Below are positions 1,875 through 61,561 of a stretch of DNA of 64,000 bases, piece by piece (positions within the stretch are counted from its first letter, which is position 1; every line of letters starts with the position of its first letter). The notes beneath the pieces are model-generated. The model was given only the letters and a program-made list of their open reading frames with translations, was not told where the DNA came from and did not search any database. The translations under genes were made by a program, and so were the position numbers. The stretch is from Candidatus Falkowbacteria bacterium (GTDB lineage: Bacteria > Patescibacteriota > Patescibacteriia > Patescibacteriales > WJLG01), in contig CAVVFV010000012.1 in assembly GCA_963747695.1 (NCBI GenBank), positions 26,659 to 90,658 on the forward strand, written 5' to 3'.

Positions 1875-1909
1875 ATGATCAAGCTTATTAATTTCCAGAA
1901 AAGTTTTTT

Positions 1910-4695: not shown

Positions 4696-4774
4696 CGTTA
4701 TCCCGCCGCGGCGGGACGGCACATCCGAATTAAGTTGAAAGTTGTAAAGTATTTTGGAAAATTTGCATAAAATA

Positions 4775-4807
4775 AAAAAGACGCGCTCAGTTGAGGCGTC
4801 TTTTTTG
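4775..4807. terminator. Bidirectional rho-independent terminator (ftsZ + / fba -)
   Basis: aaaaaa GACGCgctcagttgagGCGTC tttttt; A-run before, T-run after. Confidence 0.7.
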
Positions 4808-4820
4808 ATGGGATCAGGGC

Positions 4821-5804
4821 TTAAAACGATAGAGAGAGGAAGGATTTGAGTGATGAGCTTTTCGGCTTTGACTTGGTTTTCAGTTCCAGTTTGCCGAGAA
4901 AGATTTTGTAAGCGTTTTCGGCCGTGTAGTCGTAGAGAATGACCGCCGCAATGGCATTGGCCATGCGGATCGCTTCGGGAAGCGGACGCTGATAAATATT
5001 GCGCCCAACGGCGACTCCGCCGGTGCCGGAAATATGGATTTGATTGTGAAGTTGTTGGAGGAATTTTTTTTCCGCCATCTTGGTGCCGCCGATCGGAACT
5101 ACTTTGGATCGTCCGGCCGCTACCACGACTTCGCGGAATTTTTTGGCGGTTTCGACCGTCGGTTTGTCATAAGGATAGCTGATTTTGACGAAATCAGCGC
5201 CTAAACAGACAGCCACTCCGGCCCCGCCGGCCAATAAATGCAGATTGGTTTCATCCTTGACCGCTTTGCCGCGCGGGTACATCCAGATTACCGCGAGTAA
5301 TCCTTCCTGATGGGCATCGTAGATGATCCGAGCGGCCTGCCCGAAAGATTCCGACTCGAATTCGCTGCCGATATAAACCGTATAGCCGACGCCGATGATA
5401 TTCAAACCGGAATTTTTTTTGAATTTTATCACGTCATCCATCGGCAGCCAGCGGTTGGAAAATGGATCACGTTCCGCCTTGTTGATGAGATTAGTCTTGG
5501 AATTAGCTTTAATGAGGAACGGCACATTCGGGCAAATATCCGCGTATTTGGCAATCAAGCCTAATTGCGAGCCCAGGACTCCGATATGAGCTTGTTTGGC
5601 GATTTCAAAATAATGTTTGGGATCGGCTACCGAAGCATCCAGTCCCGGGCCGACAAAGTCATCGTTCAAATGCTCGACCTTCTGGTCGCAAGCATACATA
5701 AACAGCCTGCCGGTGCCGCGGGTGGCGATTTTCCAATTCTTCAAATATTCGGCGTGCTTGGCGCGAGGAACGTCGTAGGGAATGTGGATTTTTTGCATAG
5801 ACAT
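4821..5804 (-). CDS. Class I fructose-bisphosphate aldolase, archaeal type (DhnA/FbaB family)
   Basis: TIM-barrel aldolase pattern, Schiff-base lysine context GADFVKISYP, GRNIYQ motif; family assignment from recall. Confidence 0.65.
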   Translation of the reverse strand: MSMQKIHIPYDVPRAKHAEYLKNWKIATRGTGRLFMYACDQKVEHLNDDFVGPGLDASVADPKHYFEIAKQAHIGVLGSQLGLIAKYADICPNVPFLIKANSKTNLINKAERDPFSNRWLPMDDVIKFKKNSGLNIIGVGYTVYIGSEFESESFGQAARIIYDAHQEGLLAVIWMYPRGKAVKDETNLHLLAGGAGVAVCLGADFVKISYPYDKPTVETAKKFREVVVAAGRSKVVPIGGTKMAEKKFLQQLHNQIHISGTGGVAVGRNIYQRPLPEAIRMANAIAAVILYDYTAENAYKIFLGKLELKTKSKPKSSSLKSFLSLSF

Positions 5805-5883
5805 TTTTAAATAAAGGCGTTATATGATAAAATGTAATATAAATCAGTAATTATATTATACCATAAAAATTAAGATTGTTTAA

Positions 5884-5964
5884 TTGTTATATTGTCATAT
5901 TGCTATATTGTTAAAATGTATTGAATTGTTGTCTAGCAATATAACAATATGACAATATGGCAAT
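5884..5964. repeat. Repeat family B locus 1 (TTGTCATATTGCTATATTGTTA inverted pair)
   Basis: attgttatattgtcatattgctatattgtta ...spacer... tagcaatataacaatatgacaatatggcaat in divergent fba/gpmI spacer. Confidence 0.8.
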
Positions 5965-5978
5965 TTTAACGATAATGA

Positions 5979-7607
5979 TTGAAGTATCTTTTGTTTATGA
6001 CTGATATTAAGAAGAAAAAACCCATTGTTCTGGTAATCTTGGACGGCTGGGGTGAATGGGATATCGAGAAGGGCAACCCGATCGTGAAGTCCAAATTGCC
6101 GCTGATCGATAAATTAAACTCCCACTATCCCAAAACTTATCTGCAGGCGTCGGGCATGGCAGTTGGTTTGCCTTGGGGCGTTAGAGGCAATTCGGAAGTC
6201 GGCCACCAGACCATCGGTTCGGGCCAGATCGTCTTTCAGTTTTTGCCGACAATTTCCACGGCGATCACCGAAGGATCTTTTTTCAAGAACGAGGCGATCC
6301 TCGGCGCTTTTGACTGGGCGAAAAAAAATAATTCCAATCTGCACGTCCTGGGATTGCTTTCTGATGGATCAGTCCATTCCCACATCGAACATCTGTTCGC
6401 GCTTTTGGAGATGGCCAAGAACCGGGAAGTCAAAGAAGTTTATATCCATGCCGTGACCGATGGGCGTGACACGCACCCGCAAAGCGCTAAGCGATTTATT
6501 GAGCAGCTGGAAAATAAAATTAAAGAAATCGGCATCGGGAAAATTGCCACGCTAAGCGGCCGCTATTTCACCATGGATCGGAATAACAATTGGGACAGAG
6601 TGGAGAAAGCCTTCCTGGCAATCACCTCAGGCATCGGCATTCGAGAAAAAAATCCTCACCAGGCGGTGGATAACCAGTACGCCCGGAATATTTTTGATGA
6701 ATATTTGGAACCGGTCGTTTTAGAAGGGGATAACGGCGAACCGGTCGCGCTGATCAAGGATAACGACGCCGTGATTTGTTTCAACTTCCGCAAGGACCGT
6801 TCCCGCCAGATCACCAAGGCTTTCGTGCTGCCTAGTTTTAAAGAATTCAAACAAGCCAAGCCGCCGGCCAATCTCAAATATGTCTGCTTCGCGCCTTACG
6901 AAGAAGGACTTCCGGTTGACGTGGCTTTTCACGAGCAGCAGATCACTGTTCGTTTGGGTGAAATATTGGCCAAGAATTGGAAAAGGCAATTGCGCATTTC
7001 CGAAACGGAAAAATACGCGCACGTCACTTATTTTTTCAACGGCGGATTGGAAGAGCCGTATTTTTACGAGGACCGGATTTTGATCCCCTCCAAACGCGTG
7101 ACCACTTATGCGGATGCGCCGGAAATGAGCGCTACGGAAATCACCGATAAATTGCTGGAAGCGATGGAAAAAAATAATTATGATTTTATTTTGGTTAATT
7201 ATGCCAATTCCGATATGGTCGGCCACACGGGAAATTATCCGGCGGCCGTCAAAGCCCTGGAACACGTGGACGGTTGTCTGGCTCGATTGATTGAAGCCGT
7301 ATTTGCCAAAGGCGGAGAATTGATCATCACCGCCGATCACGGCAATGTCGAAGAGATGTTGAATATCTATACCGGCGAGCCGGACACCCAGCATTCCAAA
7401 AATGTGGTGCCCTGCTGGTATGTCAGCCCGGACAGCTGGATTGAAAGCTCGGAAAAACCCAAGAAGATCGAAGCCGGCGGTCTGCTGGTCGATCTGGCCC
7501 CGACCGTTCTGGATCTTCTCGGTTTTGAAAAACATCCGGCGATGGTCGGCTCAAGTTTGATCCGGCAATTCAAAAAGATGATGCCGGAAGAGGAAGAGGA
7601 AGAATGA
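5979..7607 (+). CDS. gpmI: 2,3-bisphosphoglycerate-independent phosphoglycerate mutase (iPGM)
   Basis: ILDGWG...RGNSEVGHQTIGSG N-terminal phosphatase-domain motifs, 542 aa. Confidence 0.9.
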   Translation: MKYLLFMTDIKKKKPIVLVILDGWGEWDIEKGNPIVKSKLPLIDKLNSHYPKTYLQASGMAVGLPWGVRGNSEVGHQTIGSGQIVFQFLPTISTAITEGSFFKNEAILGAFDWAKKNNSNLHVLGLLSDGSVHSHIEHLFALLEMAKNREVKEVYIHAVTDGRDTHPQSAKRFIEQLENKIKEIGIGKIATLSGRYFTMDRNNNWDRVEKAFLAITSGIGIREKNPHQAVDNQYARNIFDEYLEPVVLEGDNGEPVALIKDNDAVICFNFRKDRSRQITKAFVLPSFKEFKQAKPPANLKYVCFAPYEEGLPVDVAFHEQQITVRLGEILAKNWKRQLRISETEKYAHVTYFFNGGLEEPYFYEDRILIPSKRVTTYADAPEMSATEITDKLLEAMEKNNYDFILVNYANSDMVGHTGNYPAAVKALEHVDGCLARLIEAVFAKGGELIITADHGNVEEMLNIYTGEPDTQHSKNVVPCWYVSPDSWIESSEKPKKIEAGGLLVDLAPTVLDLLGFEKHPAMVGSSLIRQFKKMMPEEEEEE

Positions 7608-7610
7608 TTT

Positions 7611-7722
7611 TATTGCTATATTGTCATATTGTTATATTGATGCGCAACGATTTTAATCGATTAAGTTGTTTAATTCCGTTGCATAACAATATAACAATTT
7701 AGCAATATAATAATATGATAAT
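7611..7722. repeat. Repeat family B locus 2
   Basis: tattgctatattgtcatattgttatattg ...gcgcaacg..cgttgc... caatataacaatttagcaatataataat. Confidence 0.75.
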
Positions 7723-7735
7723 TAAACAATAAAAA

Positions 7736-7766
7736 ACGCCTTCTTTACGAAGACGTTTTTTAAAAT
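7736..7766. terminator. Bidirectional terminator-like hairpin (gpmI + / ferredoxin -)
   Basis: aaaaaacgccttctttacgaagacgtttttt; 8/9 bp stem, A-run and T-run flanks. Confidence 0.5.
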
Positions 7767-7773
7767 TCGACGG

Positions 7774-7950
7774 TTATTCCTCCACAAATATCGCTTCCAC
7801 CGGGCACTGGTCGGCAGCGGACATCGCACAGTCGTGATTGGCGCCGATGACGGTTGATTTTCCCATCTCATCAAGCTTAAAAGTATCGGGACAGACTTCG
7901 GTGCAGCGGCCGCAGCCGATGCATTTTTCTCGGTCAACTTTGATAAGCAT
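7774..7950 (-). CDS. Ferredoxin, single 4Fe-4S/3Fe-4S cluster type (58 aa; missed by ORF track, <60 aa)
   Basis: Translated by hand: MLIKVDREKCIGCGRCTEVCPDTFKLDEMGKSTVIGANHDCAMSAADQCPVEAIFVEE; CxxCxxC...CP motif. Confidence 0.75.
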   Translation of the reverse strand: MLIKVDREKCIGCGRCTEVCPDTFKLDEMGKSTVIGANHDCAMSAADQCPVEAIFVEE

Positions 7951-7979
7951 AAGATTGTTGATTAATTTTTTCTAGAAAA

Positions 7980-8156
7980 TTATTCGCTAATCGTGATGGC
8001 CGATACCGGGCATTGGTCGGCGGCTGACTGGGCGCAATCCGGATTGGCGCCGATGACGGTGGATTTGCCCATCTCGTCTAATTTAAAAGTATCCGGGCAA
8101 ACTTCGGTGCAACGGCCGCAGCCGATGCAAGTATCGCGGTCAATGTTGATGGTCAT
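7980..8156 (-). CDS. Ferredoxin paralog (58 aa), tandem duplicate
   Basis: MTININRDTCIGCGRCTEVCPDTFKLDEMGKSTVIGANPDCAQSAADQCPVSAITISE; ~75% identical to downstream copy. Confidence 0.75.
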   Translation of the reverse strand: MTINIDRDTCIGCGRCTEVCPDTFKLDEMGKSTVIGANPDCAQSAADQCPVSAITISE

Positions 8157-8346
8157 AATTTGTTGATTGGTTAATTTGTTAATTAGGTGATTGGTTTTAA
8201 TTATAGCATATCTTTTTTGTAGTATGTAGTAAGTAGTAGGCAGTATGGTTTTTGATAAAAAATTGATCGGTTGACAAAGTAATTTGATCGTGGTAATTTA
8301 TAATGTTCTTTTAAAAATCATAACATTAACCGAAAAGAGGTAAAAA

Positions 8347-8682
8347 ATGTTTAACAAAAACGGCCAAGAGGTTAAGCTTAAAGATGGTTGCTCTTTAGCC
8401 TTTAAAGAAGTTAATAAGGATGGAGTAATGGTTGTTTTACCGACACAACACACGCCTTTCTTGGAAGGCTACTATTGGGCGAAAGGTAATTTTAACAAGG
8501 CCCGTGTCGTGCTTAAGAATCGAGGAAGAGAAGTGGAGTATGGACATCCTACCATTTTATTAATATCTGAATCAATGGCTGCTATGGTGGGCATGGAAAT
8601 TGAAAAAAGAGATGATGGTCGGCCAAATCAATTCATAAGGGGTGATGATACCATCGTGGTGGTGTTGCAGAAGATCAAATAG
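8347..8682 (+). CDS. Hypothetical protein (111 aa), cargo of IR-bounded cassette
   Basis: RBS agagg 8 nt upstream; no recognisable domain. Confidence 0.5.
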   Translation: MFNKNGQEVKLKDGCSLAFKEVNKDGVMVVLPTQHTPFLEGYYWAKGNFNKARVVLKNRGREVEYGHPTILLISESMAAMVGMEIEKRDDGRPNQFIRGDDTIVVVLQKIK

Positions 8683-8705
8683 TGAAACATAGCTTGATTA
8701 TCTTA

Positions 8706-8730
8706 GGGGAGCAAGAGCTCCCCTTTTTTA
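8706..8730 (+). terminator. Rho-independent terminator
   Basis: GGGGAGC aag AGCTCCCC ttttttta. Confidence 0.8.
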
Positions 8731-9007
8731 TTCGATATACCATACTACATACTGCATACTACATCGATGCTCTTGACGAATTTTTTATATATGTTATTAT
8801 TGAATCAATCAAATAAAGCCATAGACAGTAGGCACAAACATAAGACCTACCGAGGCAAAAACATAGCTTAATCAATAAGCTTTTTGCAGTCTGTGGTTTC
8901 GGCCAGAGATTTTTTGTTTATAATGACAAATTACAAATTAGGAATTACAAATTTAGAAGATAAAATAATTTGTAATCCGTAATTTTTAATTTGTAATTGA
9001 TAAGAAT

Positions 9008-9535
9008 ATGCCTAAAACAAGAGCACAAAAGCAGGTGATCCTGGAAGGTTTGGCTGAGAAGGTGAAAGGTGCCAAGTCGGTTGTTTTCGCGAAGTTCGCC
9101 AAATTGGGCGCCAAGGAAAACGAAGATTTGCGCAAACGCCTCAAGGCCGAGGGCGGCGAATATTATGTCGCCAAAAAAACTTTGCTGAATCTGGCTTTCA
9201 AAAACAACAACCAAGAAGTGGATTTTAAGAATATGGATGGCCAAGTCGCCGCCGTGTTCGGCTACCAGGACGAAGTGGCTCCGGCCAAGATCGTCGATAC
9301 TTTCCGCAAGGAAATGGAAGAGCCGAAAATATTCTTCTTGGGCGGAATCTTGGAGAACAAGTTCATCTCCAAAGAAATGGTGGAAAGTCTGGCCAAACTT
9401 CCTTCGAAGAAGGAATTGTATGCCAAGCTGGTCGGTTCATTGAACGCTCCGGTTTCCGGATTCGTCAATGTCTTGGCCGGTAATCTCCGCGGATTGGTCA
9501 CCGTGCTAAAGGCGATTGGGGAGAAAAAAGTATAA
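9008..9535 (+). CDS. rplJ: 50S ribosomal protein L10
   Basis: L10 N-terminal pattern KQVILEGLAEKVKGAKSVVFAKF, precedes rplL. Confidence 0.9.
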   Translation: MPKTRAQKQVILEGLAEKVKGAKSVVFAKFAKLGAKENEDLRKRLKAEGGEYYVAKKTLLNLAFKNNNQEVDFKNMDGQVAAVFGYQDEVAPAKIVDTFRKEMEEPKIFFLGGILENKFISKEMVESLAKLPSKKELYAKLVGSLNAPVSGFVNVLAGNLRGLVTVLKAIGEKKV

Positions 9536-9541
9536 AATATA

Positions 9542-9648
9542 ATGCGAATACTACAAATTGTTCGCGAATACTACGAATAGATTTAACGAATTTAATTCGA
9601 TAAATAGTTCGCGGTATTCGCGAAAAATTCGCTGTATTCGCATCATGG
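9542..9648. repeat. Repeat family C locus 2 (inverted orientation relative to locus 1), inserted between rplJ and rplL
   Basis: atgcgaatactacaaattgttcgcgaatactacgaatag...cgcggtattcgcgaaaaattcgctgtattcgcatcatgg. Confidence 0.8.
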
Positions 9649-9725
9649 AATAAAGCTAATAAATCAAATATAAATAATTGGTTCATGATACATGATTCAT
9701 GTTACATGCTACCTGTAATAAAACT

Positions 9726-10121
9726 ATGGAAGACAAGAAAATTGAAGTTCCGGCCAAGTTTGAAAAATTGGTTTCGGAAATCGAAAAGATGAGCGTTCTG
9801 GATTTAGCCGAATTGGTTAAGATCCTCGAAGAGAAGTTCGGCGTTTCCGCCGCCGCCCCGATGATGGCCGCTGCCGCCGGTGCCGCTGCCGCAGCTCCGG
9901 AGGAAGAGAAGGATTCTTTCAATGTCGAATTGACTGAAGCCGGCCCCAACAAGATCGCCGTCATCAAGGCCGTCCGGACCGTTACCACTCTTGGTTTGAA
10001 GGAAGCCAAGGATTTGGTTGACGGAGCCCCGAAGATGGTGAAGGAAGGCGCCAAGAAAGACGAAGCCGAATCAATCAAGAAAACTCTGGAAACTGCCGGC
10101 GCGAAAGTCATCCTGAAGTAA
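9726..10121 (+). CDS. rplL: 50S ribosomal protein L7/L12 (start at ATG 9726 rather than track start 9699)
   Basis: Ala/Pro hinge [19 protein letters not shown] and C-terminal [27 protein letters not shown]. Confidence 0.9.
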
Positions 10122-10134
10122 ATACTTCTTCAAA

Positions 10135-10171
10135 TAAAAAAACGTCCTCGACTATGAGGACGTTTTTTTAT
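10135..10171 (+). terminator. Rho-independent terminator after rplL
   Basis: aaaaaACGTCCTCgactatGAGGACGTttttttt. Confidence 0.85.
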
Positions 10172-10189
10172 TAAAAATATAAATTACTT

Positions 10190-10443
10190 TATAGCGCGCA
10201 TTGGAAAATTTTGGATCAGACGCGCAGCGTGGAAACCGTGCAAAATTGCGTTGTCTGAGGAGGCGCCGCGCCGACGAGTATAGCAATTTTGCTAGGTTTC
10301 ATAGCGGAGCGTCCCAAAATTTGTCCAGCGCGCAGTTTTTTGCGCCACTTTTTTTAAAAAAAGTGGCAAAATACAGAATTAATAATGTTGGGAATGTACC
10401 CACCCGCCTCGCCGGGCTCGGCACCACTCCCGAGAGGGGATCC
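10190..10443 (+). ncRNA. Candidate structured ncRNA / complex repeat element, copy 1 (~255 nt; TATAAA-like box upstream, GC hairpin at 3' end)
   Basis: Homologous to 54220-54485 with compensatory substitutions in two helices; the 90-aa ORF across it is not conserved in copy 2. Confidence 0.4.
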
Positions 10444-10445
10444 TT

Positions 10446-12737
10446 CTATTTTATAACCGGAATAGGCATCTGATAAACCGAGTGATCGGCCAAGATATAA
10501 ATCTGCTTGTCCTTGTCGTTGACGGCAAAATCTTTGACATTATTAAGATCGGTGAAAATATATTGAGCCAGATAAGTGCCCTTGCTATTCCAGAGAATCA
10601 GCCGTTTGGCGGCGGGTTCGAACACGTAAAAATAATCGGCGGTGACGATCAGCCGGGTGGCGCCGGTAACGGGCGGATCGACCGCATCGAGAACCAGATC
10701 CTGTTTTTTGCCTTTGAGATATTTTTCAACCGTGCCGTTACTATATAAGACGTATAAATTTCCGTTATCATCGATATAAAGCGCGCTGGAAGAAGCAAGA
10801 TTGCCGGTCTGATTGAGCCATTTGGTGGGATTGACGAAAGCAGCGGCGCTGCGGGTGTAGCGGTAGATTTGCCCCAAGCTTTTATCCAGGACATACATCT
10901 TGTCGCTATAAGCTTCCAAACCGCCGATGTTTGCCGGCGTCGAAGGCAAGGCGATCGTCAGCAAGCTGGGTTGATCGGTTTTATCAAGTTGGAAGATATT
11001 ATTGCCGGATAAATAAAGAATATTATTATCCTGACCGGCCGAGGGGAGAGTGATTGGACCGGAAGTGGCGATACCCAGAGTATAATCCGCGGTTACGATG
11101 TTTTGTTTGACGTCGATTTTGAAGATCGCGTTATTCTGCGAATCCGCCGCGTAAACGATATTGTTGTTGAAAAAAATATTTTGCGGCTGAGCCGAGGCGG
11201 TCAGATTGGAAAAGTCGCCGATCTTATTCAAGCCGGAAATATTGTTGATGTTTTGGATTTTTAGCAATTGCTGTTTCTGTTTGTCGAAGAGAGCCTGGAC
11301 CGATTGCCTTTGGCTAGCTTCCGCGGCCGGTATTTGCGCCAGCAAGTCTTTATTTAAATTATAAAGTTGAGTGGCTTCCGTCTTGTTGCCGTAAACGAAA
11401 TCGGCATCGATCTTGTCCTGATTCTTGCCGATGGAAGCGACTAAGGCATTAAAATCGCGCAGCTTGGCGTCGGATTGATTTTTCTGATTAGTGAAGTATA
11501 AGCCGATAAAGAAGACGGCGATGCAGATGACAGCGACGACCAAGATTATTTTTATCTTCTTGCCGCTGATAACCAAAGGCTTTTTTTCCGCAGGCGTCGC
11601 CGGTTCGGCGGCCGGCATTTCGTCATCCGGCCGGCGTTGCAATATTTTGCCGATAAAGACGAAGAACGCCGCGATCAATTTACCTAATTTCTTGAAGAAA
11701 TCCTTGGTTTTTTCCGAAGAAATCAAACCATTCCTTTTTTTGAAGAAGATTTTTTCTTTCAAGAGGAACATTCCCCGCGACGATTTTGTTTCACGGGGTT
11801 CGGCTACGGTCGGCGACGGTTTGATTTTTTCGCTGATCGCTTTGGTCCATTTCTTCAGATTGACGATCCCGGCCGGAGTCATAATCTCCTCGGTTTTTTC
11901 TTCAGTGCGGACGATCTCCGGTTTATAATCATCGATTTTAATCTCTTCTTCCAGCCGACTTTTCAGTTCTTCGCCGGAAAGGGACATCGCCACCGTATTC
12001 TTAATGATAATTCCCAGAAAAGAAACATAAGAGTTGATCTGCTCGAGCAGATTGCGGATCTGTTCGGCGGCTCCGGTTGGGGAAAGCTTGGTAATGATCC
12101 TGATTAATTGCTTGTTGGACAGATATTCGGATAAAGCTTCGTTGATCACCAGAAAATATCCGCCGACCGGAATTTTGCCGCTCACCACATTGGAAAAGAG
12201 CTTGTTGATGTTCAAAGCTTCGCTTTCCGGAGCATCGCCGACATCAGAAATCTTGTATTCGATCTTTTCCGTTTCCGACGGCTCGCTTTCTTTTTGCTTG
12301 AGTGATGTTTTTTCCTTATAGATGAGGAGGGTCTTATTCTTGCCCGTGCCGGCAAAATATATTTCGTTTTTATAGAGTACGCAAATGCTGATATTGAAAG
12401 CGTAGGGGCTGATTTTCATCTTCTGCTGGGTGATGAATTCCGCCAAGTCCTTATTGGTTTTAGACAAGGCGCTTTCGAAGATGCTTTCCAGGGAGATCGA
12501 CTCGATTCTTTCCTTGAGGATGACTTTTTCGTTCTGGTAGTAGTTAAAGTTGATGTTATTTATCAAAAATTCCAGCAGTTTGGGAGCTTCCGAACCGGTT
12601 GACTGGATTTCCGCCAAAATAAAAAGCTTCCCGACCAGGGCTTCTTTCTGATTGTCAGGCTGGGCGATAAAAATGTCGCTGGCTGTGCCCGACTTCTGCT
12701 CATTATTCAATAAAATCGAAGCGATTTTGTAATACAT
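10446..12737 (-). CDS. Large membrane protein: cytoplasmic N-terminal domain, central TM helix, extracellular beta-propeller-like C-terminal repeats
   Basis: 763 aa; hydrophobic segment IILVVAVICIAVFFIGLYF; repeated NxxY/LYVL-type strands in C-terminus. Confidence 0.5.
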   Translation of the reverse strand: MYYKIASILLNNEQKSGTASDIFIAQPDNQKEALVGKLFILAEIQSTGSEAPKLLEFLINNINFNYYQNEKVILKERIESISLESIFESALSKTNKDLAEFITQQKMKISPYAFNISICVLYKNEIYFAGTGKNKTLLIYKEKTSLKQKESEPSETEKIEYKISDVGDAPESEALNINKLFSNVVSGKIPVGGYFLVINEALSEYLSNKQLIRIITKLSPTGAAEQIRNLLEQINSYVSFLGIIIKNTVAMSLSGEELKSRLEEEIKIDDYKPEIVRTEEKTEEIMTPAGIVNLKKWTKAISEKIKPSPTVAEPRETKSSRGMFLLKEKIFFKKRNGLISSEKTKDFFKKLGKLIAAFFVFIGKILQRRPDDEMPAAEPATPAEKKPLVISGKKIKIILVVAVICIAVFFIGLYFTNQKNQSDAKLRDFNALVASIGKNQDKIDADFVYGNKTEATQLYNLNKDLLAQIPAAEASQRQSVQALFDKQKQQLLKIQNINNISGLNKIGDFSNLTASAQPQNIFFNNNIVYAADSQNNAIFKIDVKQNIVTADYTLGIATSGPITLPSAGQDNNILYLSGNNIFQLDKTDQPSLLTIALPSTPANIGGLEAYSDKMYVLDKSLGQIYRYTRSAAAFVNPTKWLNQTGNLASSSALYIDDNGNLYVLYSNGTVEKYLKGKKQDLVLDAVDPPVTGATRLIVTADYFYVFEPAAKRLILWNSKGTYLAQYIFTDLNNVKDFAVNDKDKQIYILADHSVYQMPIPVIK

Positions 12738-12806
12738 TTTAACGAAAAATTAACCGCACAATGATTGACGGCTTCTCTATTATTATATTATACTATTGGT
12801 AAATAG

Positions 12807-14462: not shown

Positions 14463-14589
14463 TTTGTCATCCTGAGGCCCCTGGCCGAAGGATCTGATCC
14501 TTCCCGTGTAAAAAAAAGTTTGTTTTTAAGATAAATTTTGTGCGTCCTTGGAAGGAGCAGATCCTTCGCGCGGCGCTCAGGATGACAAA
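14463..14589. repeat. Repeat family K locus 1 (TTTGTCATCCTGAG...GAAGGATC / GATCCTTC...CTCAGGATGACAAA)
   Basis: Inverted arms at 14463-14494 and 14560-14589; relatives at 19925-20070 and 63091-63142. Confidence 0.8.
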
Positions 14590-14593
14590 ATAA

Positions 14594-16360: not shown

Positions 16361-16491
16361 AATGCTAATTAGTTATAATGCTAATTTTCGAATGATGCGA
16401 ATTTCGCGAATTCCCCTCTTGGGAGGGGTGCCGAGCCCGGCGAGGCGTGGTGGGTCATTCGTAGATTCGCATCATTCGTGAAATTAGCATT
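16361..16491. repeat. Family-C-like palindromic element with nested GC-rich hairpin module (16412-16454) identical to the 3' module of the 10190/54220 elements in reverse orientation
   Basis: aatgctaatt...gatgcgaatttcgcgaat TCCCCTCTTGGGAGGGGTGCCGAGCCCGGCGAGGCGTGGTGGGT cattcgtagattcgcatcattcgtgaaattagcatt. Confidence 0.7.
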
Positions 16492-17003: not shown

Positions 17004-17408
17004 TTGTCATTCCCGCGCAGGCGGGAATCCAGTAACCTTGTCATTCCCGCGAAGGCGGGAATCCAGAAAATATGAAGGAGGGGAAAAGTTATTACGTTTA
17101 TATTTTAGCCGGCAATAGAAACGGCACGCTTTACACGGGCATTACCAATAGTTTGATTAGAAGAATTCAAGAACATAAAACAAAATACTTTAAAGGTTTT
17201 ACGGAAAAATATGGAGTTGATAAGTTAGTGTATTATGAAATTTATGGCAGTCCGAACGATGCGATTCATCGGGAGAAATGTATTAAAAAATGGAATAGAG
17301 ATTGGAAATTAAATTTAATAGAAAAGAATAATCCAACTTGGAAAGATTTATCAGTAGATTTATATTAACGTTTTTAATCTGGATTCCCGCCTTCGCGGGA
17401 ATGACGAA
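17004..17408. mobile_element. TIR-bounded mini-element carrying a GIY-YIG nuclease gene, inserted between atpF and atpH
   Basis: Two direct copies of TTGTCATTCCCGCG(C/A)AGGCGGGAATCCAG at 17004-17031 and 17038-17066; perfect inverted copy CTGGATTCCCGCCTTCGCGGGAATGACGAA at 17379-17408. Confidence 0.6.
17072..17368 (+). CDS. GIY-YIG nuclease family protein (YhbQ/UPF0213-like, 98 aa)
   Basis: SYYVYIL..GTLYTGITNSLIRRIQEH GIY-YIG core; low GC. Confidence 0.8.
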   Translation: MKEGKSYYVYILAGNRNGTLYTGITNSLIRRIQEHKTKYFKGFTEKYGVDKLVYYEIYGSPNDAIHREKCIKKWNRDWKLNLIEKNNPTWKDLSVDLY

Positions 17409-18121: not shown

Positions 18122-18245
18122 GAATTTCTCCTAGGAAAAAGTTTATTGAAAAGGACGTTAGTTATTATCAAAATATCATATCATATTTTGTATATAATGT
18201 CAATAAGATTGAGATATAACCCAATAAAAAAGGCTTAAAATGTAT

Positions 18246-18320
18246 AATTAGTTCATTGGTCGATTAGTTAATTAGTTTTGTAGACTAAGTGACTAATCAA
18301 CTAATTAACTAATCAACTAA
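18246..18320. repeat. Repeat family E locus 1 (GATTAGTTAATTAGTT / AACTAATTAACTAATC inverted pair) with TATAAT boxes upstream of atpA
   Basis: Perfect 16-bp inverted arms; relatives at 44070-44190 and 37088-37121. Confidence 0.75.
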
Positions 18321-18326
18321 AAACAT

Positions 18327-19862
18327 ATGAGTAATACTAAAGATTTCATCATTGAAGAATTGAGAAAACGGATCGACGGTTTTAAATCCGAAGCCGGCGA
18401 AAAGACTTTCGGCCGCGTGATTTCCGTCGGCGACGGCATTGCCCGCGTATCCGGCTTAGGCGACGCGATGATGTCGGAAATGTTGGAATTCAAATCCGCT
18501 GCCGGTTCAAAGTTCGGCGTGGTTTTGAATCTTGAAGAGGACTCGGTCGGCGCGATTATTCTTGATGATACGGAAGGAATCAAGGAAGGGGATGAAGTCG
18601 TGGCTTTGAAGCGCATTTTGGAAGTTCCGGTTTCGGAAGCGATCATCGGCCGCGTTTTGAATCCGTTGGGTAAAGCTCTGGATGGCAAAGAAGAAATCAA
18701 AACAACTAAATTTTATCCGGTGGAAAAAGTCGCTCCGGGCGTTATCACCCGTGAATCCGTGAAAAAGCCGTTGCAGACCGGCATTAAAGCTATCGACGCG
18801 ATGATCCCGATCGGCCGCGGCCAGCGCGAACTAATCATTGGCGATCGTCAGATCGGTAAGACTGCTATCGCTATTGACACTATCATTAACCAGAAGGGCA
18901 AGAACGTTAAATGTATTTATGTTGCAATCGGTCAGAAGGAATCGAAGATCGCCGGCATCGTTGCCAAATTGAAAGAAGCAGGCGCGATGGAATATACCAC
19001 CGTTATTTTGGCGGGCGCTTCGGACCCAGCTTCTCTCTTATATATCGCTCCGTTTGCCGGTTCGGCTATGGCGGAATATTTCTTGGATAAAGGCGAGGAT
19101 GTTTTGATCGTTTATGATGACTTGACCAAGCACGCCGCGGCTTATCGCGAACTTTCTCTTTTGTTAAGAAGACCTCCGGGACGCGAGGCTTATCCGGGCG
19201 ACGTTTTTTATCTCCATTCTCGTTTATTGGAACGTGCTTGCAAATTGAACAAGGATTTTGGCGGCGGTTCCATTACCGCTTTGCCGGTTATTGAAACTCA
19301 GTCCGGCGACGTGTCCGCTTACATTCCGACCAATGTTATTTCCATTACCGACGGCCAGATTTATCTGGTTCCGGATTTATTTTATCAGGGCAATCGTCCG
19401 GCCGTGGATGCCGGTATTTCCGTTTCCCGTGTCGGTTCAGCCGCGCAGATCAAGGCGATGAAAAAAGTGGCCGGCAAGATGAGGTTGGAAGTGGCGCAAT
19501 ATCGCGAGCTGGCGGCTTTCGCCCAGTTCGGTTCGGATTTGGATGAAGATACAAAAAGAAAATTGGAACGCGGCAAGCGCATCGTGGAAATCTTGAAGCA
19601 AGGCCAGTATGTCCCGATGCCCGTGGAAGAGCAGGTGGCGATTTTCTTTGCCGTGACCAATGGCTTGATGGATAATGTGCCGGTGGAAAAGATCGTTGAA
19701 TTTGAACCGAAGATGGTTGAATATGTGAAGGCCCGCGGCGCAGATGTGTTGAAGGCGATCAAGACATCCGGTGAATTGACTGATGATACGAATGCAAAGT
19801 TGAAGAAGTTGATAGAGGATTTTAAGGACACATTAGAATATGTAGGGAAGTCGGGTATATAA
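18327..19862 (+). CDS. atpA: F0F1 ATP synthase subunit alpha
   Basis: P-loop [13 protein letters not shown] and alpha-specific motifs; 511 aa. Confidence 0.95.
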
Positions 19863-19915
19863 TGCGAATACTACGAATTGTACGCGAATACAACGAACAT
19901 TTATTTACGAAAGTT
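19862..19915. repeat. Partial family C copy
   Basis: aatgcgaatactacgaattgtacgcgaatacaacgaac. Confidence 0.6.
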
Positions 19916-19924
19916 TTTTAAATT

Positions 19925-20070
19925 TTTGTCATCCTGAGCGCCGCGCGAAGGATCTATTGTCCGAGAAGCTTTCAATTTATAGATAAAAAATTTTGATTGA
20001 ATAAAGTCGGCGTTCCTTCAATATAGATCCTTCGTCAGGGACTCCCTGGCCGGGCAGGCAGGATGACAAA
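19925..20070. repeat. Repeat family K locus 2
   Basis: tttgtcatcctgagcgccgcgcgaaggatc ... gatccttcgtcagggactccctggccgggcaggcaggatgacaaa. Confidence 0.8.
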
Positions 20071-25114: not shown

Positions 25115-25176
25115 TCGTAGGAACGCAATATTTTGCGTTCCCGTTCGCCAGAACGCAAAATATTGCGCTCCTACGA
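25115..25176. repeat. Repeat family A locus 2 (inverted pair)
   Basis: tcgtaggaacgcaatattttgcgttc ... gaacgcaaaatattgcgctcctacga. Confidence 0.8.
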
Positions 25177-28598: not shown

Positions 28599-28665
28599 GG
28601 TAGGAACGCAATACCTTGCGTTCTGATTCACGGCATTTATCGTAGGAACGCAATACCTTGCGTTC
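28599..28665. repeat. Repeat family A locus 3 (two direct units)
   Basis: ggtaggaacgcaataccttgcgttc ... cgtaggaacgcaataccttgcgttc. Confidence 0.8.
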
Positions 28666-28695
28666 TATCTTTGCAAGAATAATTCGAGAGTTAAT

Positions 28696-36974: not shown

Positions 36975-37121
36975 TATTTTTCAAGTTCTTATAAATTTCT
37001 CATCTGTCCGCGGACAGGTGGGAAATAATAAGAAAATTGAATAATAGTTACTTAGTTGTCTTGCTGGCCAAGATAAATCGAATCCCAAACTAATTAACCA
37101 ATTAACTAATTCACTAATATA

Positions 37122-38294
37122 ATGAAAATCGCCATAATCGGACAAAAAGGAATTCCCAGCCGTTCGGGCGGGATCGAAAAACACGTGGAAGATCTGTCGG
37201 TCCGCTTGGTTAAGGCTGGTCATGAAGTTTATGTCTATACCCGTCCCAATTATACCGATAAAAATTTGCAAGAATTCCAAGGCGTGAAATTAGTGTCATT
37301 GCCTTCGATCGCTACCAAGCATTTGGACGCGATCTCTCATACTTTTCTGGCTTGTCTCGATGTTGCCAAACGGGATGTCGATGTGATCCATTTCCATTCC
37401 ATCGGTCCGTCGTCCTTAATTTGGCTGATGAAAATTTTGAAACCGGGCGTGCCGATTGTCGCGACTTATCACAGCCCTTGCTATAAGCATCAGAAATGGG
37501 GACTGTTCGCCAAAGCTTATCTTAAATTCGGCGAATTTTTCGCTTGCCGCGTGGCCGATAAGACCATCGCTGTCTCTAAAGTTTTGAAAGAATTCGCCGC
37601 CAAGCAATACGGCCGCGTTCCCGAATATATTCCCAATGGCGTGGTGGAAGGAAACAATACCGCGGCTAAGAATATCAAATATTTCGGTCTGAAGAAAGAC
37701 GGCTACATTCTCGCCGTGGGCCGGTTAGTGAAGCACAAGGGTTTTGAATATTTAATTAAAGCTTTCCGCAACGTGAAAACCGACAAGAAATTGGTCATCG
37801 CCGGCGGCAGCGCTTTCACGGATAAATATGTTCGCCGTCTGCAGGATTTGGCGGCCGGCGATAAGCGGATCGTTTTTACCGGCGCGCAGACCGGCCGGAC
37901 TTTGGCGGAACTTTTTTCCAACGCCTATCTTTTCGTCCAGCCGTCCGAATCGGAAGGCTTGTCGATCGCTTTGCTGGAAGCGATGGCTTACGGCAAGGCC
38001 ACTTTGGTTTCGGATATCCCGGCCAACCGCGAGGCGATTTCTTACACCGGTTATACTTTCCGCAATATGAATGTCGCCGATCTGACCGGCAAATTGAACG
38101 GCTTGTTGCGCAATCCGGAAATCGTCAGCGCCATGGGTGAGATGCAGAAAAAAAGAGTGTTGAAAGAGTATGATTGGGAAGCGATCGTTCGGAGTACTGA
38201 AAAAGTTTATCATGCCGCGCTGCAGAAAAAACCGGTAGTGATCAAAGTCCGCAAGCTGAAATTCGCGCAAAGATTTTTGAATATATTCTTTTAA
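37122..38294 (+). CDS. Glycosyltransferase family 4 (GT-B)
   Basis: MKIAIIGQKGIPSRSGGIEKHVEDL; ESEGLSIALLEAMAYGKATLVSDIPANRE. Confidence 0.8.
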   Translation: MKIAIIGQKGIPSRSGGIEKHVEDLSVRLVKAGHEVYVYTRPNYTDKNLQEFQGVKLVSLPSIATKHLDAISHTFLACLDVAKRDVDVIHFHSIGPSSLIWLMKILKPGVPIVATYHSPCYKHQKWGLFAKAYLKFGEFFACRVADKTIAVSKVLKEFAAKQYGRVPEYIPNGVVEGNNTAAKNIKYFGLKKDGYILAVGRLVKHKGFEYLIKAFRNVKTDKKLVIAGGSAFTDKYVRRLQDLAAGDKRIVFTGAQTGRTLAELFSNAYLFVQPSESEGLSIALLEAMAYGKATLVSDIPANREAISYTGYTFRNMNVADLTGKLNGLLRNPEIVSAMGEMQKKRVLKEYDWEAIVRSTEKVYHAALQKKPVVIKVRKLKFAQRFLNIFF

Positions 38295-44069: not shown

Positions 44070-44190
44070 CTTAATTAGTCGATTAGTTAATTGGTTAATT
44101 AGTTTTATTGCAAAAAAGTTTCGGCTAATTTTATTATCGAAGCCTAATTTTACTAAAACTAAGCACCTAATTAACTAAGCAACTAATGAC
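44070..44190. repeat. Repeat family E locus 2
   Basis: cttaattagtcgattagttaattggttaattagtttt ... aactaagcacctaattaactaagcaactaatgac. Confidence 0.75.
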
Positions 44191-44223
44191 ATTGTTTATT
44201 GTTGAAAATCAAAAATTCGGACA

Positions 44224-46387: not shown

Positions 46388-47683
46388 ATGTTTAAAAAAA
46401 TAATATTATTAAAATTGAAGTGGCTGGCTAAAATGATTTTAGCTAAATACAAGCCAAAAATAGTCGGCATTACCGGCAGCGTAGGAAAGACCAGCACCAA
46501 GGATGCGGTTTTTTGCGTGCTCAAAACCAAATTCCGCGTCCGGGCGAGCATTAAGAATTATAACAATGAATTCGGTTTGCCGTTGTCGGTGATCGGGTCT
46601 GATTCGCCCGGGAAAAATTTTTTCGGTTGGCTGGCGGTTTTTTGGCAAGCTTATTGGCTGATCCTTTTTTTCGCCAAGGATTATCCCGAAGTGTTGATTT
46701 TGGAAATGGGCGTCGATAAGGTCGGCGATATGGATTATCTGACCAGCATCGTCAAGTGCGATGTGGGGGTGATCACGGGGATCGGCGAAGCGCATTTGGA
46801 AGCTTTTGGTTCGGTTGATAAGATCCAACTGGAAAAAGGAAAGCTGTTGAAAAAATTGGCCAAGAATGGCTGGGCAATCCTCAATTTTGACGATGAGAAG
46901 ACTAAGGCGCTCGCCGCCGAAAGCAAAGTCCGGGTTTTGGGTTATGGATTCAATCCCGGCGCCGAAGTCAGCGGCAGTAATCTGCAATTCAAATTCGAAG
47001 AGTCGAGGAACTTGGATAATTTGCTCGGTCTGACTTTTAAAGTTAGTTATGAAGGTTCGATGGTTCCGGTGGTCTTACCCGAAGTCATCGGCGGCGGCGC
47101 AGTTTACGCGGCGCTGGCGGCGATCGCGGTCGGACTGACCTTCAAGATCAATCTGGTGGAGATTGCGGCGGCCTTGCAGAAATTCGTTTCACCCAAAGGT
47201 CGAATGAAATTGATCGACGGGATCAAGCATACTTTATTGATTGACGATTCTTATAATTCTTCGCCGCAATCTTCGCTCGCGGCGATTGATTTCATCAAGC
47301 GGATCGAAACCGACCAGCCCTTCCGCAAGATCGCCGTTATGGGCGATATGCTGGAATTAGGTACTTACTCTGAAGCCGGACATCGCGAAGTCGGCCGTGC
47401 CGTAGCTGTTGCCAAATTCGATTTGCTCGTCACGGTAGGCGAGCGGGCGAGAGAGATTAGCCATGGCGCCAAGGCGGCCGGGTTGGCTGATGATCAAATA
47501 TTCAGTTTTTCTCATAACGCCGAAGCCGGTTTGTTCGTCCAGGATCGTTTAAAAGCCGGCGACCTGGTCTTGATCAAAGGATCGCAAGGCGCCCGGATGG
47601 AACAGGTCGTCAAGGAACTGATGGCAAATCCGCTCGAGGCCGGCATTCTGCTGGTTCGCCAGGGAGCCGAGTGGAGCGCGTAG
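46388..47683 (+). CDS. murF: UDP-N-acetylmuramoyl-tripeptide--D-alanyl-D-alanine ligase
   Basis: Mur ligase P-loop GITGSVGKTSTKD; Mur ligase central/C-terminal domains. Confidence 0.85.
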   Translation: MFKKIILLKLKWLAKMILAKYKPKIVGITGSVGKTSTKDAVFCVLKTKFRVRASIKNYNNEFGLPLSVIGSDSPGKNFFGWLAVFWQAYWLILFFAKDYPEVLILEMGVDKVGDMDYLTSIVKCDVGVITGIGEAHLEAFGSVDKIQLEKGKLLKKLAKNGWAILNFDDEKTKALAAESKVRVLGYGFNPGAEVSGSNLQFKFEESRNLDNLLGLTFKVSYEGSMVPVVLPEVIGGGAVYAALAAIAVGLTFKINLVEIAAALQKFVSPKGRMKLIDGIKHTLLIDDSYNSSPQSSLAAIDFIKRIETDQPFRKIAVMGDMLELGTYSEAGHREVGRAVAVAKFDLLVTVGERAREISHGAKAAGLADDQIFSFSHNAEAGLFVQDRLKAGDLVLIKGSQGARMEQVVKELMANPLEAGILLVRQGAEWSA

Positions 47684-47743
47684 GAACGCAATATTTTGCG
47701 TTCAAAATAAATCGCAGGAACGCAAGATATTGCGTTCCTACAG
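47678..47743. repeat. Repeat family A locus 4; murF stop codon TAG is part of the repeat
   Basis: gcgtaggaacgcaatattttgcgttc ... gcaggaacgcaagatattgcgttcctacag. Confidence 0.8.
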
Positions 47744-50780: not shown

Positions 50781-51503
50781 ATGAGAGGAATAATTCTTTC
50801 CGGAGGAGCGGGAACGCGTCTCCGACCATTGACCTATATCACTTCAAAACAACTTTTGCCGGTTTATAACAAACCGATGATTTATTATCCGCTTAATACT
50901 TTGCTTAAAGCGGGGATCAAGGAAATATTGATCATCGTGGCGCCGGAGCGGGCTGGCGATTATTCCAATCTGCTTGGTTCGGGCAAAGAATTCGGCGCGA
51001 AATTCACATATGAGGTCCAGGATGAGCCAAGGGGTTTGGCAGACGCGCTGATCATCGGCGATAATTTCATCGATCAGGAAAATATCGCCTTGATTTTAGG
51101 CGATAATATTTTTGAAGATGATTTTACCGACGAGATTAAGAAATTCAAAAGCGGCGGAAAAATTTTCGCCAAGCAAGTCAAAGATCCGGAACGTTTCGGC
51201 GTGGTGGAATTTGCCGGCAGCAAGGCCAAGCGAATCGTGGAAAAACCCAAGGAACCGGTCAGCGATTATGCTGTTACCGGATTGTACCTCTATGATTATC
51301 GCGCCGTTCAAGTTGCCAAGGACCTCAAGCCTTCGCCTCGGGGCGAATTGGAAATCACCGACGTGAATAATTGGTATTTGGAGAAAGGGGAGTTGGAAGT
51401 GGCCAAGATCAGCGGCGCCTGGCTGGATGCCGGAACCTTTGACAGCTTGCTGGAAGCGCAGAATCTGGCCAAGGAAAAATTGGCCGGAAAAATGGTGATA
51501 TAA
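50781..51503 (+). CDS. Sugar-phosphate nucleotidyltransferase, RmlA-like (glucose-1-phosphate thymidylyltransferase short form)
   Basis: MRGIILSGGAGTRLRPLTYITSKQLLPVYNKPMIYYPL. Confidence 0.75.
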   Translation: MRGIILSGGAGTRLRPLTYITSKQLLPVYNKPMIYYPLNTLLKAGIKEILIIVAPERAGDYSNLLGSGKEFGAKFTYEVQDEPRGLADALIIGDNFIDQENIALILGDNIFEDDFTDEIKKFKSGGKIFAKQVKDPERFGVVEFAGSKAKRIVEKPKEPVSDYAVTGLYLYDYRAVQVAKDLKPSPRGELEITDVNNWYLEKGELEVAKISGAWLDAGTFDSLLEAQNLAKEKLAGKMVI

Positions 51504-51611
51504 TTGTCATATTGTCATATTGTCATATTGCTATATTGTTACGCTACGAAATTAATTAGCTGTGTATTGAAAACGTTGCGCAACAATATAACAATATAGC
51601 AATATAACAAT
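51504..51611. repeat. Repeat family B locus 3 (three tandem TTGTCATA units in left arm)
   Basis: attgtcatattgtcatattgtcatattgctatattgtta ...ttgcgcaac... caatataacaatatagcaatataacaat. Confidence 0.8.
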
Positions 51612-51618
51612 AAATCCG

Positions 51619-54147: not shown

Positions 54148-54219
54148 TTTTCTGTTATATAGAATGCGAATTTTTTTAATTGGTTTTTTTGTTAATTTAT
54201 AATCTTCCTTATAGCGCGC

Positions 54220-54485
54220 ATTGGGAAATTTCCGTAATCACGCAGCGTAGAAGCCGTGCAAAAGTTGCGTTGTCCGAAGCCCGCTTCATTATTATAAAAA
54301 TTATAAATAAAGGCGGGCAAGAATAGCAATTTTGCTAGGCTTCCTAGCGGAGTGATAGGAAATTTTCCCTGCGCGCAGTTTTTTGCGCTACTTTTTCTAA
54401 AAAAAGTAGCAAAGATTTTGAAATAATGTCAGGAATATACCCACCCCGCCTCGCCGGGCTCGGCACCCCTCCCAAGAGGGGATTT
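54220..54485 (+). ncRNA. Candidate structured ncRNA / complex repeat element, copy 2 (~265 nt; TATAAT at 54198-54203; 3' GC hairpin + T-run)
   Basis: Homolog of 10190-10443; CCCCTCccaaGAGGGGattttt 3' end abuts recR stop. Confidence 0.4.
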
Positions 54486-55084
54486 TTAAACTTCATTTCT
54501 GTTCTTTAAGGCGTTATTCAAAGTTATTTCGTCCGCGTATTCGATATCCGAACCCATCGGCAGGCCGCGGGCTAGACGAGTCGTTTTTATTTTGAGCGGT
54601 TTGATTATTTTGGCCAGATACATCGAAGTCGTTTCGCCTTCCAGGGTGGGGGAGAGTGCTAAGATAACTTCTTTGATTTTTCCCTGCTTAAGGCGAGTTT
54701 CCAGCTTGGCAATGTTGGATGTTTCGACGCTGACGCCGGTTTGCGGGCGCAAGTTCCGGCCCAAAAGAAAATATAAGCCGTTATATTTTTTGGTCGTTTC
54801 GATGGCGAGCATTTCCGGTTGCGTGGCGATCACGCAGAGTGTCGAAGCATCGCGAGCCGGATCAGAGCAGAGCGGACACGGATCAGTCTCGGCGACTGCC
54901 AAACAAGTACTGCAAATCTTTAAATTTTTTTTCAGGCTGACGATGTCGGTGGCGATTTTAGTCAGAAATTCTTTGGGCTGTTTGAGCAGATAAAAAGCAT
55001 ACCGTTGCGCCGTTTTCGGCCCAACGGTAGGAATCTCCGACTTAGATCATCGATCAAATTTTGAATAGCCTGGGGGAATTTCAT
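54486..55084 (-). CDS. recR: Recombination protein RecR with apparent frameshift near 55030-55040
   Basis: C4 zinc finger CSTCLAVAETDPCPLC and Toprim domain in one frame; N-terminus MKFPQAIQNLIDDLSRR from ATG 55084 in another. Confidence 0.7.
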
Positions 55085-55090
55085 TAAAGT

Positions 55091-55206
55091 ATGCGAATAT
55101 CGCGAATTAATCGCGAATACTGCAAAAAATACGATATAATGACTCGAAGGAAATATGTTATTCGCGGTTTTCGTGGCATTCGCGTTTATTCGTAGATTCG
55201 CATCAT
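55091..55206. repeat. Repeat family C locus 3, fills recR-ybaB spacer
   Basis: atgcgaatatcgcgaattaatcgcgaatactgc...ttattcgcggttttcgtggcattcgcgtttattcgtagattcgcatcatt. Confidence 0.75.
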
Positions 55207-60232: not shown

Positions 60233-60290
60233 CGTAGGAACGCAATATTTTGCGTTCAAATCATTAGAACGCAAAGTATTGCGTTCCTAC
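60233..60290. repeat. Repeat family A locus 5 (inverted pair) immediately upstream of next gene
   Basis: cgtaggaacgcaatattttgcgttc ... gaacgcaaagtattgcgttcctac. Confidence 0.8.
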
Positions 60291-61269: not shown

Positions 61270-61561
61270 AAAATCCCCCTCTCGAGATGGGTGTCCGCCC
61301 CGGTTTGTCCGCCTCGGACGGAGCCGAACGGGGAGGTTTAGAAAAAAAGTCCCCTCCACGGGAGGGGTGGACAGTCCCTGACTGGACGGGGAGGGTCTAT
61401 TCCTGACATTATTATATTATTTTAAATAAGTCGGAAGGAATAATAATTTTAATATATTTACGTTTGCCTAATGAAAAATAAAGAATCAGGAATAATAATA
61501 GACCCACCCCGCCCTCGCTAATCACTCGGGCACCCCTCCCGTGGAGGGGACAAATTTAATT
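61270..61561. repeat. GC-rich hairpin modules in inverted orientation around an AT-rich core
   Basis: GTCCCCTCCACGGGAGGGGTG at 61349-61369 and its exact reverse complement CACCCCTCCCGTGGAGGGGAC at 61531-61551; inner arms gggtctattcctgacattatt / aataataatagaccc. Confidence 0.7.

Follow-up and report, generated by a model that had tools for sequence, protein, structure and literature searches.

In a 64-kb stretch of DNA (the window), what is the sequence that fills the spacer between a CYTH-type gene and the convergent recR gene, and how is it related to a similar sequence found near rplL in the same stretch? The original prediction, made from the letters of the DNA, was that both are copies of a structured non-coding element on the + strand that ends in a separable GC-rich module.

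A composite element occurs twice in the window

Searches of the 64-kb window with nhmmer returned exactly two copies of the element (E 1e-22 to 1e-31 per half), at 10169-10440 (copy 1) and 54189-54487 (copy 2). When aligned, the copies have a mean column identity of 83% over ∼290 nt, so the claim that copy 2 is a second copy of the same sequence is borne out. Each is a composite of a core and a GC module. The element had been placed from 54220 onward; it is present there, but its true start lies upstream, with the flank beginning at ∼54189 and the rod at 54214. The features of the two copies (columns are those of alignment A2, which contains 30 distinct core copies) are as follows.

Copy 2
54189-54213 (+): conserved, A/T-rich 5' flank; A2 columns 1-25; family consensus AAAAAATAAATAAATTTCCTTATA
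54198-54203 (+): -10-like TATAAT inside the flank, ending 11 nt before the rod
54214-54376 (+): rod helix of 163 nt with a subtype-B lower stem; GCGCGC (54214-54219) pairs with GCGCGC (54371-54376)
54279-54318 (+): variable apical hairpin, GCCCGC ... AT-rich ... GCGGGC
54377-54386 (+): linker AG + U6 + GC, directly 3' of the GC-closed rod base and intrinsic-terminator-like
54387-54410 (+): A/U hairpin, GCUACUUUUU-CU-AAAAAAAGUAGC; helix 6 of the family model, 100% paired
54411-54421 (+): conserved 3' tail, AAAGAUnUUUGA, at the end of core conservation
54422-54482 (+): GC module, with linker AATAATGTCAGGAATAnAC, C-box CCCACCCCG, variable inner hairpin (54448-54464), CA and last hairpin
54466-54481 (+): last hairpin of the module, CCCCTC-ccaa-GAGGGG, then ATTTTT
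54483-54487 (+): T5 tract, completing the intrinsic-terminator signal and overlapping the recR stop codon at 54486-54488 (-)
Copy 1
10169-10380 (+): core of subtype A with a short apical hairpin; rod 10194-10333, A/U hairpin 10344-10367
10381-10440 (+): GC module lacking a T-tract, with a mismatch in the last hairpin, adjoining the convergent stop at 10446

The tip of copy 2 is AT-rich and 24 nt longer than that of copy 1. Both copies abut the stops of convergent minus-strand ORFs, as originally described: one of 763 aa ending at 10446, the other encoding the C-terminal part of RecR and ending at 54486. On the other side, copy 1 is preceded by rplL's own canonical terminator (10140-10170), and copy 2 by a gene for a 170-aa protein that has no Pfam match itself and whose homologues are named CYTH or carry PF01928; look-ups of the exact protein of this gene returned no record.

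Three further observations concern these neighborhoods. The window's recR is split on the minus strand into two ORFs, an N-terminal one of 40 aa (54962-55084) and one of 138 aa (54486-54902). The usual '...EIPTVGPKTAQRYAFYLL...' of RecR is recovered by shifting the frame 1 nt near 55035, and relatives have an intact 198-aa RecR; the split reflects a sequencing error or else a pseudogene. Upstream of rplJ-rplL, an Rfam ribosomal protein L10 leader is found at 8801-8924 (+) with 49 bits, above its gathering score, and a 154-nt tandem duplicate (7799-7952 and 8005-8158, 81% identical) lies upstream of this leader region.

The element belongs to a lineage-restricted, multicopy family

Relatives were obtained from two scans, of species-representative genomes and of metagenomes, which used different conserved blocks as patterns. 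These scans yielded ∼30 further distinct core copies, from two Patescibacteria-type metagenome-assembled genomes (MAGs) and from wetland or peat metagenomes: at least 3 copies in the MAG 'Patescibacteria group bacterium STD1_31', at least 6 in the MAG DATJQC01 and others on ∼20 wetland and peat contigs. By our counts, the core is ∼235 nt long, 5' flank included. DATJQC01 (loci L001-L003 and L008) is titled 'Candidatus Nanoarchaeia archaeon', yet it carries bacterial FtsH-type and acetyl-CoA-synthetase-type genes, and its element is the same as that of the Patescibacteria MAG; this label or binning looks wrong.

A scan of the whole window against Rfam 15 at gathering thresholds returned the L10 leader only. 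When both copies and a relative (L021) were compared with Rfam at E values up to 10, the matches on core or module were at chance level (18 bits or less); 25.6-bit matches near copy 1 fall on the rplL terminator. No tRNA or tmRNA was found in the window, a search of the window for antisense targets matched the GC modules alone, and viral contigs gave two chance 17-mer matches and none with a longer pattern. No description of the element turned up in the literature searched, whether by sequence string or by topic. Based on these results, the family is real and apparently undescribed; as found so far, it is lineage-restricted, multicopy and present in only a few Patescibacteria.

Evolution preserves the fold of the + strand

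The minimum free energy of each window copy is far below that of its shuffles (z = -6.6 for copy 2 and -5.4 for copy 1). In a 56-pair family model, 96.5% of the cells are paired, compared with 34-46% when the partners are slid by 1-3 columns; 11 pairs have changed on both sides, and none of 500 shuffles reaches the observed paired fraction or covariation score. The third pair of the A/U hairpin, for instance, is C-G in 27 copies, U-A in 2 and A-U in 1. The internal loops of the rod are also conserved and are non-canonical (GCA/GGA and GUA/CUA). At the center of the rod, a covarying 2-bp helix lies between 3x3 loops that can form G.A/C-G/A.G stacks. The fold is clearly preserved by evolution.

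Two subtypes of the lower stem, both present in every genome, differ by fully compensated changes: in subtype A, UUUUGG-AUAA-GACGC pairs with GCGUC-CCAAAA, and in subtype B, UUUCC-GUA-AUCAC pairs with GUGAU-A-GGAAA. Copy 1 of the window is of subtype A and copy 2 of subtype B. Because much of the covariation comes from these two subtypes, it represents fewer independent events than the cell counts suggest; pairs that vary independently of subtype are those at columns 87/240, 32/271, 60/247 and 341/361. The apical tips are of at least five interchangeable types, ranging from 12 to >130 nt across the family. In one relative (L028, 2402-2614), a subtype-A 5' arm is joined to a subtype-B 3' arm, which breaks the lower stem; this copy is a dead recombinant or else an artifact of metagenome assembly, a chimera formed across repeats.

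The pairs that depart from Watson-Crick geometry indicate which strand is functional. Cells of the model contain 36 G.U and 26 G.A pairs versus 14 A.C and 1 U.C when read on the + strand, the closing stem of 10 copies is GCGAGC/GCGAGC, whose tandem G.A pairs would be U.C/C.U on the opposite strand, and long apical extensions also contain U.G pairs. This asymmetry identifies the + strand as the functional single strand. It is no proof of RNA, since G.T and tandem G.A pairs are tolerated in single-stranded DNA too. Covariation, G.U pairs and tandem G.A pairs thus agree with the original description of a structured non-coding element on the + strand.

Two other candidate features were rejected. 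A small hairpin flagged by a terminator scan, GCGCAG-UUUU-UUGCGC, has a 5' arm that varies without compensation. The sole ORF common to copies, a TTG-started frame ('MENFG...') in copy 1 and L008, is interrupted by a stop in subtype B, which speaks against a coding role.

A structured RNA that combines a conserved scaffold with a variable hairpin in 200-270 nt is reminiscent of orphan guide-type or template RNAs (TnpB/IscB omega RNA, IS110 bridge RNA, retron or DRT ncRNA) and of a divergent 6S RNA, and Patescibacteria host unusual RNA-guided systems (PMC12045711), which we count in favor of the guide-type reading. We nevertheless regard a guide, template or 6S identity as very improbable: Rfam gave no match even at E up to 10, and a cognate protein gene was found beside none of the copies. 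For 6S RNA in particular, the central region of the element forms covarying pairs where 6S has a large open bubble, and at least 6 copies occur in one MAG, compared with one or two 6S genes per genome.

Promoter-like and terminator-like signals at the ends of the element

The TATAAT proposed as the promoter of copy 2 is present at 54198-54203, but the case for a promoter is weak. In 17 of 30 copies a TANNNT hexamer has its end 8-14 nt upstream of the rod, versus 12.6 ± 2.7 in shuffles (∼1.7 standard deviations), the constant distance of this -10-like hexamer is largely due to homology of the flank, and a scan for sigma-70-type promoters found none on the + strand.

At the other end, positions 54466-54487 (+) form a predicted intrinsic terminator, defined here by a GC-rich stem of at least 5 bp, a loop of 3-8 nt and a U-tract within 2 nt. 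The stem has 6 pairs, of which 5 are G-C, the loop is 4 nt and ATTTTT follows, so the terminator originally assigned to copy 2 is plausible. Across the family, a T-tract follows 16 of 36 modules. It follows 11 of 15 modules that are attached to a core in the sense orientation and 5 of 21 that are free (Fisher p = 0.006), indirect evidence for + strand transcription that passes through the core and probably stops at the attached module. Copy 2 fits this pattern and copy 1 does not; a T-run is likewise absent after the module at 16412. The rod base followed by AG-U6 is itself terminator-like, and a shorter RNA of ∼175 nt is therefore possible.

The suggestion that the hairpin of copy 2 could serve both strands is not supported. 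On the minus strand it reads ...UAAAAAUCCCCUCUUGGGAGGGG-UGCCGAG, and no U-tract follows. A syntenic relative (L049) terminates recR with a separate, canonical, bidirectional terminator consisting of an A-tract, a hairpin and a T-tract. In the absence of a minus-strand U-tract after the hairpins, canonical termination of recR by copy 2 is unsupported.

[quoted passage not shown] Three terminator-like signals follow one another, namely the rod base with its U6, the A/U hairpin and the GC hairpin with its T5; a convergent gene lies downstream of ∼17 of 28 copies, and in the window the convergent stops lie immediately next to both copies. On the other hand, copy 1 comes after a gene that already has its own canonical terminator, ∼9 copies lie directly upstream of co-oriented genes, and the hairpins lack the U-tract that the minus strand would need. 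Simple termination also leaves the conserved loops, the two subtypes and the 163-nt rod unexplained, and we consider the punctuation reading improbable.

The GC module is a separate dispersed palindrome

The GC module is a two-hairpin repeat family separate from the core. The window contains seven copies of it (one degenerate) in both orientations, and ∼30 distinct copies occur among the relative loci. Among those that stand apart from a core in the window are the following.

16412-16465 (-): free-standing GC module between two co-directional + strand ORFs, lacking a T-tract
61274-61340 (-): degenerate GC module with an enlarged inner hairpin, read from the sequence and missed by nhmmer
61352-61413 (-): GC module followed by a T7 tract on its own strand
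61493-61548 (+): GC module head-to-head with 61352-61413, forming a REPIN/BIME-like pair

The first of these confirms the lone, reverse-oriented module that had been noted at 16412-16454: its 43 nt on the minus strand match with 1 mismatch, and 0 such matches are expected by chance. The region 61349-61551 had been described as one variant of the module. Modules are indeed present there, but as three separate copies and not a single variant. All of these free modules, at 16412 and at 61274-61548, lie between co-directional genes.

That the 3' module is a separable unit, as proposed, is evident from copies that are free-standing, in both orientations, in tandem arrays or inserted inside other copies of the element; in L032, for example, a module sits in reverse orientation within the U loop of a core. 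One relative (L011, 3010-3203) carries four head-to-tail modules with a 50-nt period and zero spacers. The sequence of the inner hairpin varies freely and its complementarity is kept. Like REP and REPIN sequences, the module is a short, GC-rich, imperfect palindrome that is extragenic, occurs in both orientations and forms an inverted pair (61352/61493). The best reading of these sequences is that the module is a REP/SPRITE-like dispersed palindrome that may have been recruited as the terminator of the RNA.

Two other palindromes interrupt cores, CCTGCCTGCCGGCAGGCAGG and the GTCATTCCCGCG...GGGAATCCAG type, of which the latter is also found at 17004-17069 of the window. The foreign GC palindromes are confined to loops of the core (the GUA loop or the U loop, the U-loop cases being L032 and L046) or to its tip, a restriction to unpaired sites that agrees with selection on the structure. 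The window locus at 17004-17069 consists of two tandem GC palindromes, TTGTCATTCCCGCGnAGGCGGGAATCCAG, and the same family replaces the upper rod in L028 at 162-383.

Other repeats occur in the window. A 28-nt hairpin repeat, CGTAGGAACGCAAnnnTTTGCGTTC, has nine copies there, mostly in head-to-head pairs, and could serve as an operator-like site or form a further family of dispersed palindromes. Tandem repeats with an 8-nt period, of types ATTGTCAT/ATTGCTAT, ACTAATTA and GCGAATAC, fill spacers on both strands. A perfect 32-nt inverted pair, AGATCCTTCGCGCGGCGCTCAGGATGACAAAA, lies at 14559-14590 and 19924-19955, 5.3 kb apart, and its motif also occurs just upstream of the copy of the RNA element in L022.

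800-856, 25116-25173, 28599-28668, 47679-47740 and 60233-60289: sites of the 28-nt repeat CGTAGGAACGCAAnnnTTTGCGTTC
5875-5965, 7604-7723, 18245-18334, 37081-37131, 44072-44192 and 51499-51614: 8-nt-period repeats
1745-1876, 9537-9648, 19857-19897 and 55086-55126: further 8-nt-period repeats

The core is under purifying selection and its positions turn over

A locus of STD1_31 (L007) is syntenic with window positions 1892-12749, and its proteins have 89% amino-acid identity to those of the window. Between the window genome and STD1_31, cores of the same type share 84-89% identity, versus 78% for the two window copies. Four-fold degenerate sites of L007 and the window are 58% identical, and the spacers around the cores are unalignable between the two genomes. 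The much higher identity of the cores shows that they are under purifying selection. The copies do not keep their positions: in STD1_31 a copy is lacking after rplL, and the spacer in which its own copy is found contains none in the window.

The closest relative with the gene order L21-CYTH-recR-ybaB-dnaB (L049) has a 168-nt CYTH-recR spacer. In it, a rod-less remnant of the element is found at 4533-4600 (the same as in L050 and L051), on the strand opposite to that of copy 2, retaining the 5' flank, GCGC, the U-rich linker and the A/U hairpin. Its sequence is consistent with the palindromic rod having dropped out precisely between the two GCGCGC ends. The presence of this opposite-strand remnant in a relative implies that single copies are dispensable, a repeat-like behavior. 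Among the copies of alignment A2, variants of the closing stem, the subtype, the pair at columns 87/240 and the five apical types occur in many combinations, which points to recombination among copies.

The genes beside the copies are ordinary (FtsH, MnmA, Acs, adenylate kinase, EngA, RecO, DinB, pyruvate kinase and others), and no neighbor gene recurs across copies. Two DNA-element assignments were rejected. Where copies form divergent pairs (L008 and L033), the genes they enclose are ordinary accessory genes and not transposases, unlike those of a composite transposon. The base of the rod is GCGCGC/GCGCGC and not the RYYYAAC ... GTTRRRY of an integron attC site, and orientations are mixed in the L008 cluster, where attC sites would share one orientation relative to their cassettes.

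These findings must also be weighed against a non-autonomous mobile DNA, such as a foldback MITE or a PATE/REP-like element mobilized in trans (an HUH/Y1 transposase that acts on hairpins in single-stranded DNA is one candidate); the fold would then be kept because the transposition machinery needs it on one DNA strand, and any RNA would be incidental. Like MITEs, the copies are multiple and intergenic, and their insertion sites are polymorphic between related genomes, even at 89% amino-acid identity. The decayed copy in L049, the mosaic recombination of parts and the co-occurrence of several other dispersed GC palindromes speak for such an element, and the strand asymmetry is compatible with single-stranded DNA; the sense strand of both window copies is the G-rich, presumably lagging-template, strand. 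Several observations argue against it. No transposase, RT, TnpB or IS110 gene adjoins any of the ∼30 copies whose neighbors were examined. The ends offer only a weak A/U-rich match between 5' flank AAATTTCC and 3' tail GGCAAAGATTT in place of convincing terminal inverted repeats, and no target-site duplications are visible at the boundaries, filled and empty sites in relatives being too diverged to align. The entire 190-nt core, loops included, is conserved far above neutral sites, whereas MITEs normally need only their ends, and its architecture (flank, U6, A/U hairpin) is asymmetric. The T-tract bias of attached modules points in addition to transcription. We think it doubtful that the element is a mobile DNA whose RNA is incidental, while granting that reading, the main rival to the one favored below, appreciable weight.

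A dispersed structured small RNA as the favored explanation

On balance, and with modest confidence, we favor the view that the element is a dispersed, selected, independently transcribed and self-contained structured small-RNA unit of Patescibacteria. Transcription would be driven from the conserved A/T-rich flank and start at the GCGCGC base of the rod or slightly upstream of it. The + strand RNA is predicted to fold into a 163-nt irregular rod whose tip is a freely exchangeable variable hairpin and whose internal loops, conserved in sequence, are probably a protein-binding surface. The U6 tract, the A/U hairpin and the AU-rich tail would come 3' of the rod, and the transcript of copy 2 may end at the fused GC two-hairpin repeat plus T5, giving an RNA of ∼275 nt. 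Over time, copies would have been gained, lost and recombined among intergenic sites, with sequence and fold kept by purifying selection.

A more specific and speculative version, which we put forward only tentatively and think unlikely in its full form, is that the core represents an undescribed class of Patescibacteria RNA: a multicopy, trans-acting RNP scaffold with two subtypes, in which the rod loops bind a lineage-specific protein and the swappable apical hairpin provides specificity, and which spreads without a transposase, for example by recombination or through an RNA intermediate.

The genomes of Patescibacteria are tiny, and to our knowledge hardly any regulatory RNAs have been described from them. 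A selected fold of ∼200 nt that is present in several copies per genome and mobile among spacers is either an unrecognized functional RNA family or an unusually constrained mobile repeat, and either reading accounts for much of the GC-rich structure in otherwise AT-rich spacers. For annotators and assemblers, such repeats carry a risk of chimeric joins, the L028 copy resembling a chimera of both subtypes. The element also supplies a covariance-model seed for a survey of the phylum.

Comparison with known systems

In paralogous families of small RNAs (Qrr, 6S-1/6S-2, YrlA/B), the loci are normally syntenic and few. The element resembles these families in having several structured-RNA copies per genome, promoter-like and terminator-like signals, and subtypes conserved across species; it differs in that its positions turn over, its copies decay and exchange parts, and it has no similarity to an Rfam family.

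Among repeats, ERIC/IRU (enterobacterial repetitive intergenic consensus), Correia/NEMIS, RUP and pneumococcal BOX sequences are intergenic, imperfect-palindrome repeats of 100-250 nt that form rod-like RNA hairpins, and they can carry promoters or affect mRNA ends (PMC3184786; reportedly also Wilson and Sharp 2006). The core shares with them sequence conservation across species at differing chromosomal positions, larger variants that arise by insertions at fixed internal sites, and a modular or mosaic build like that of BOX. Unlike ERIC-type repeats, it lacks visible terminal inverted repeats or TA duplications, is asymmetric (a conserved 5' flank versus a 3' U6 and A/U hairpin), has two subtypes per genome, belongs to a different phylum (Patescibacteria) and has zero sequence similarity to them.

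REP, REPIN and SPRITE sequences are short, GC-rich palindromes that are extragenic, multicopy and found in both orientations (PMC3184786, PMC3116915, PMC8266576). [quoted passage not shown] It differs in that it has two hairpins and C-rich boxes at its flanks (CCCACCCCG ... CACCCCUCCC), in having no RAYT/TnpA(REP) gene that we have seen and in inserting inside another structured element. We do not assign the element to any of these families. Neither terminal repeats nor target duplications were seen, and a cognate transposase is not known. The closest kinds are the transcribed foldback repeats of the ERIC/BOX/Correia type for the core and REP/REPIN/SPRITE sequences for the module.
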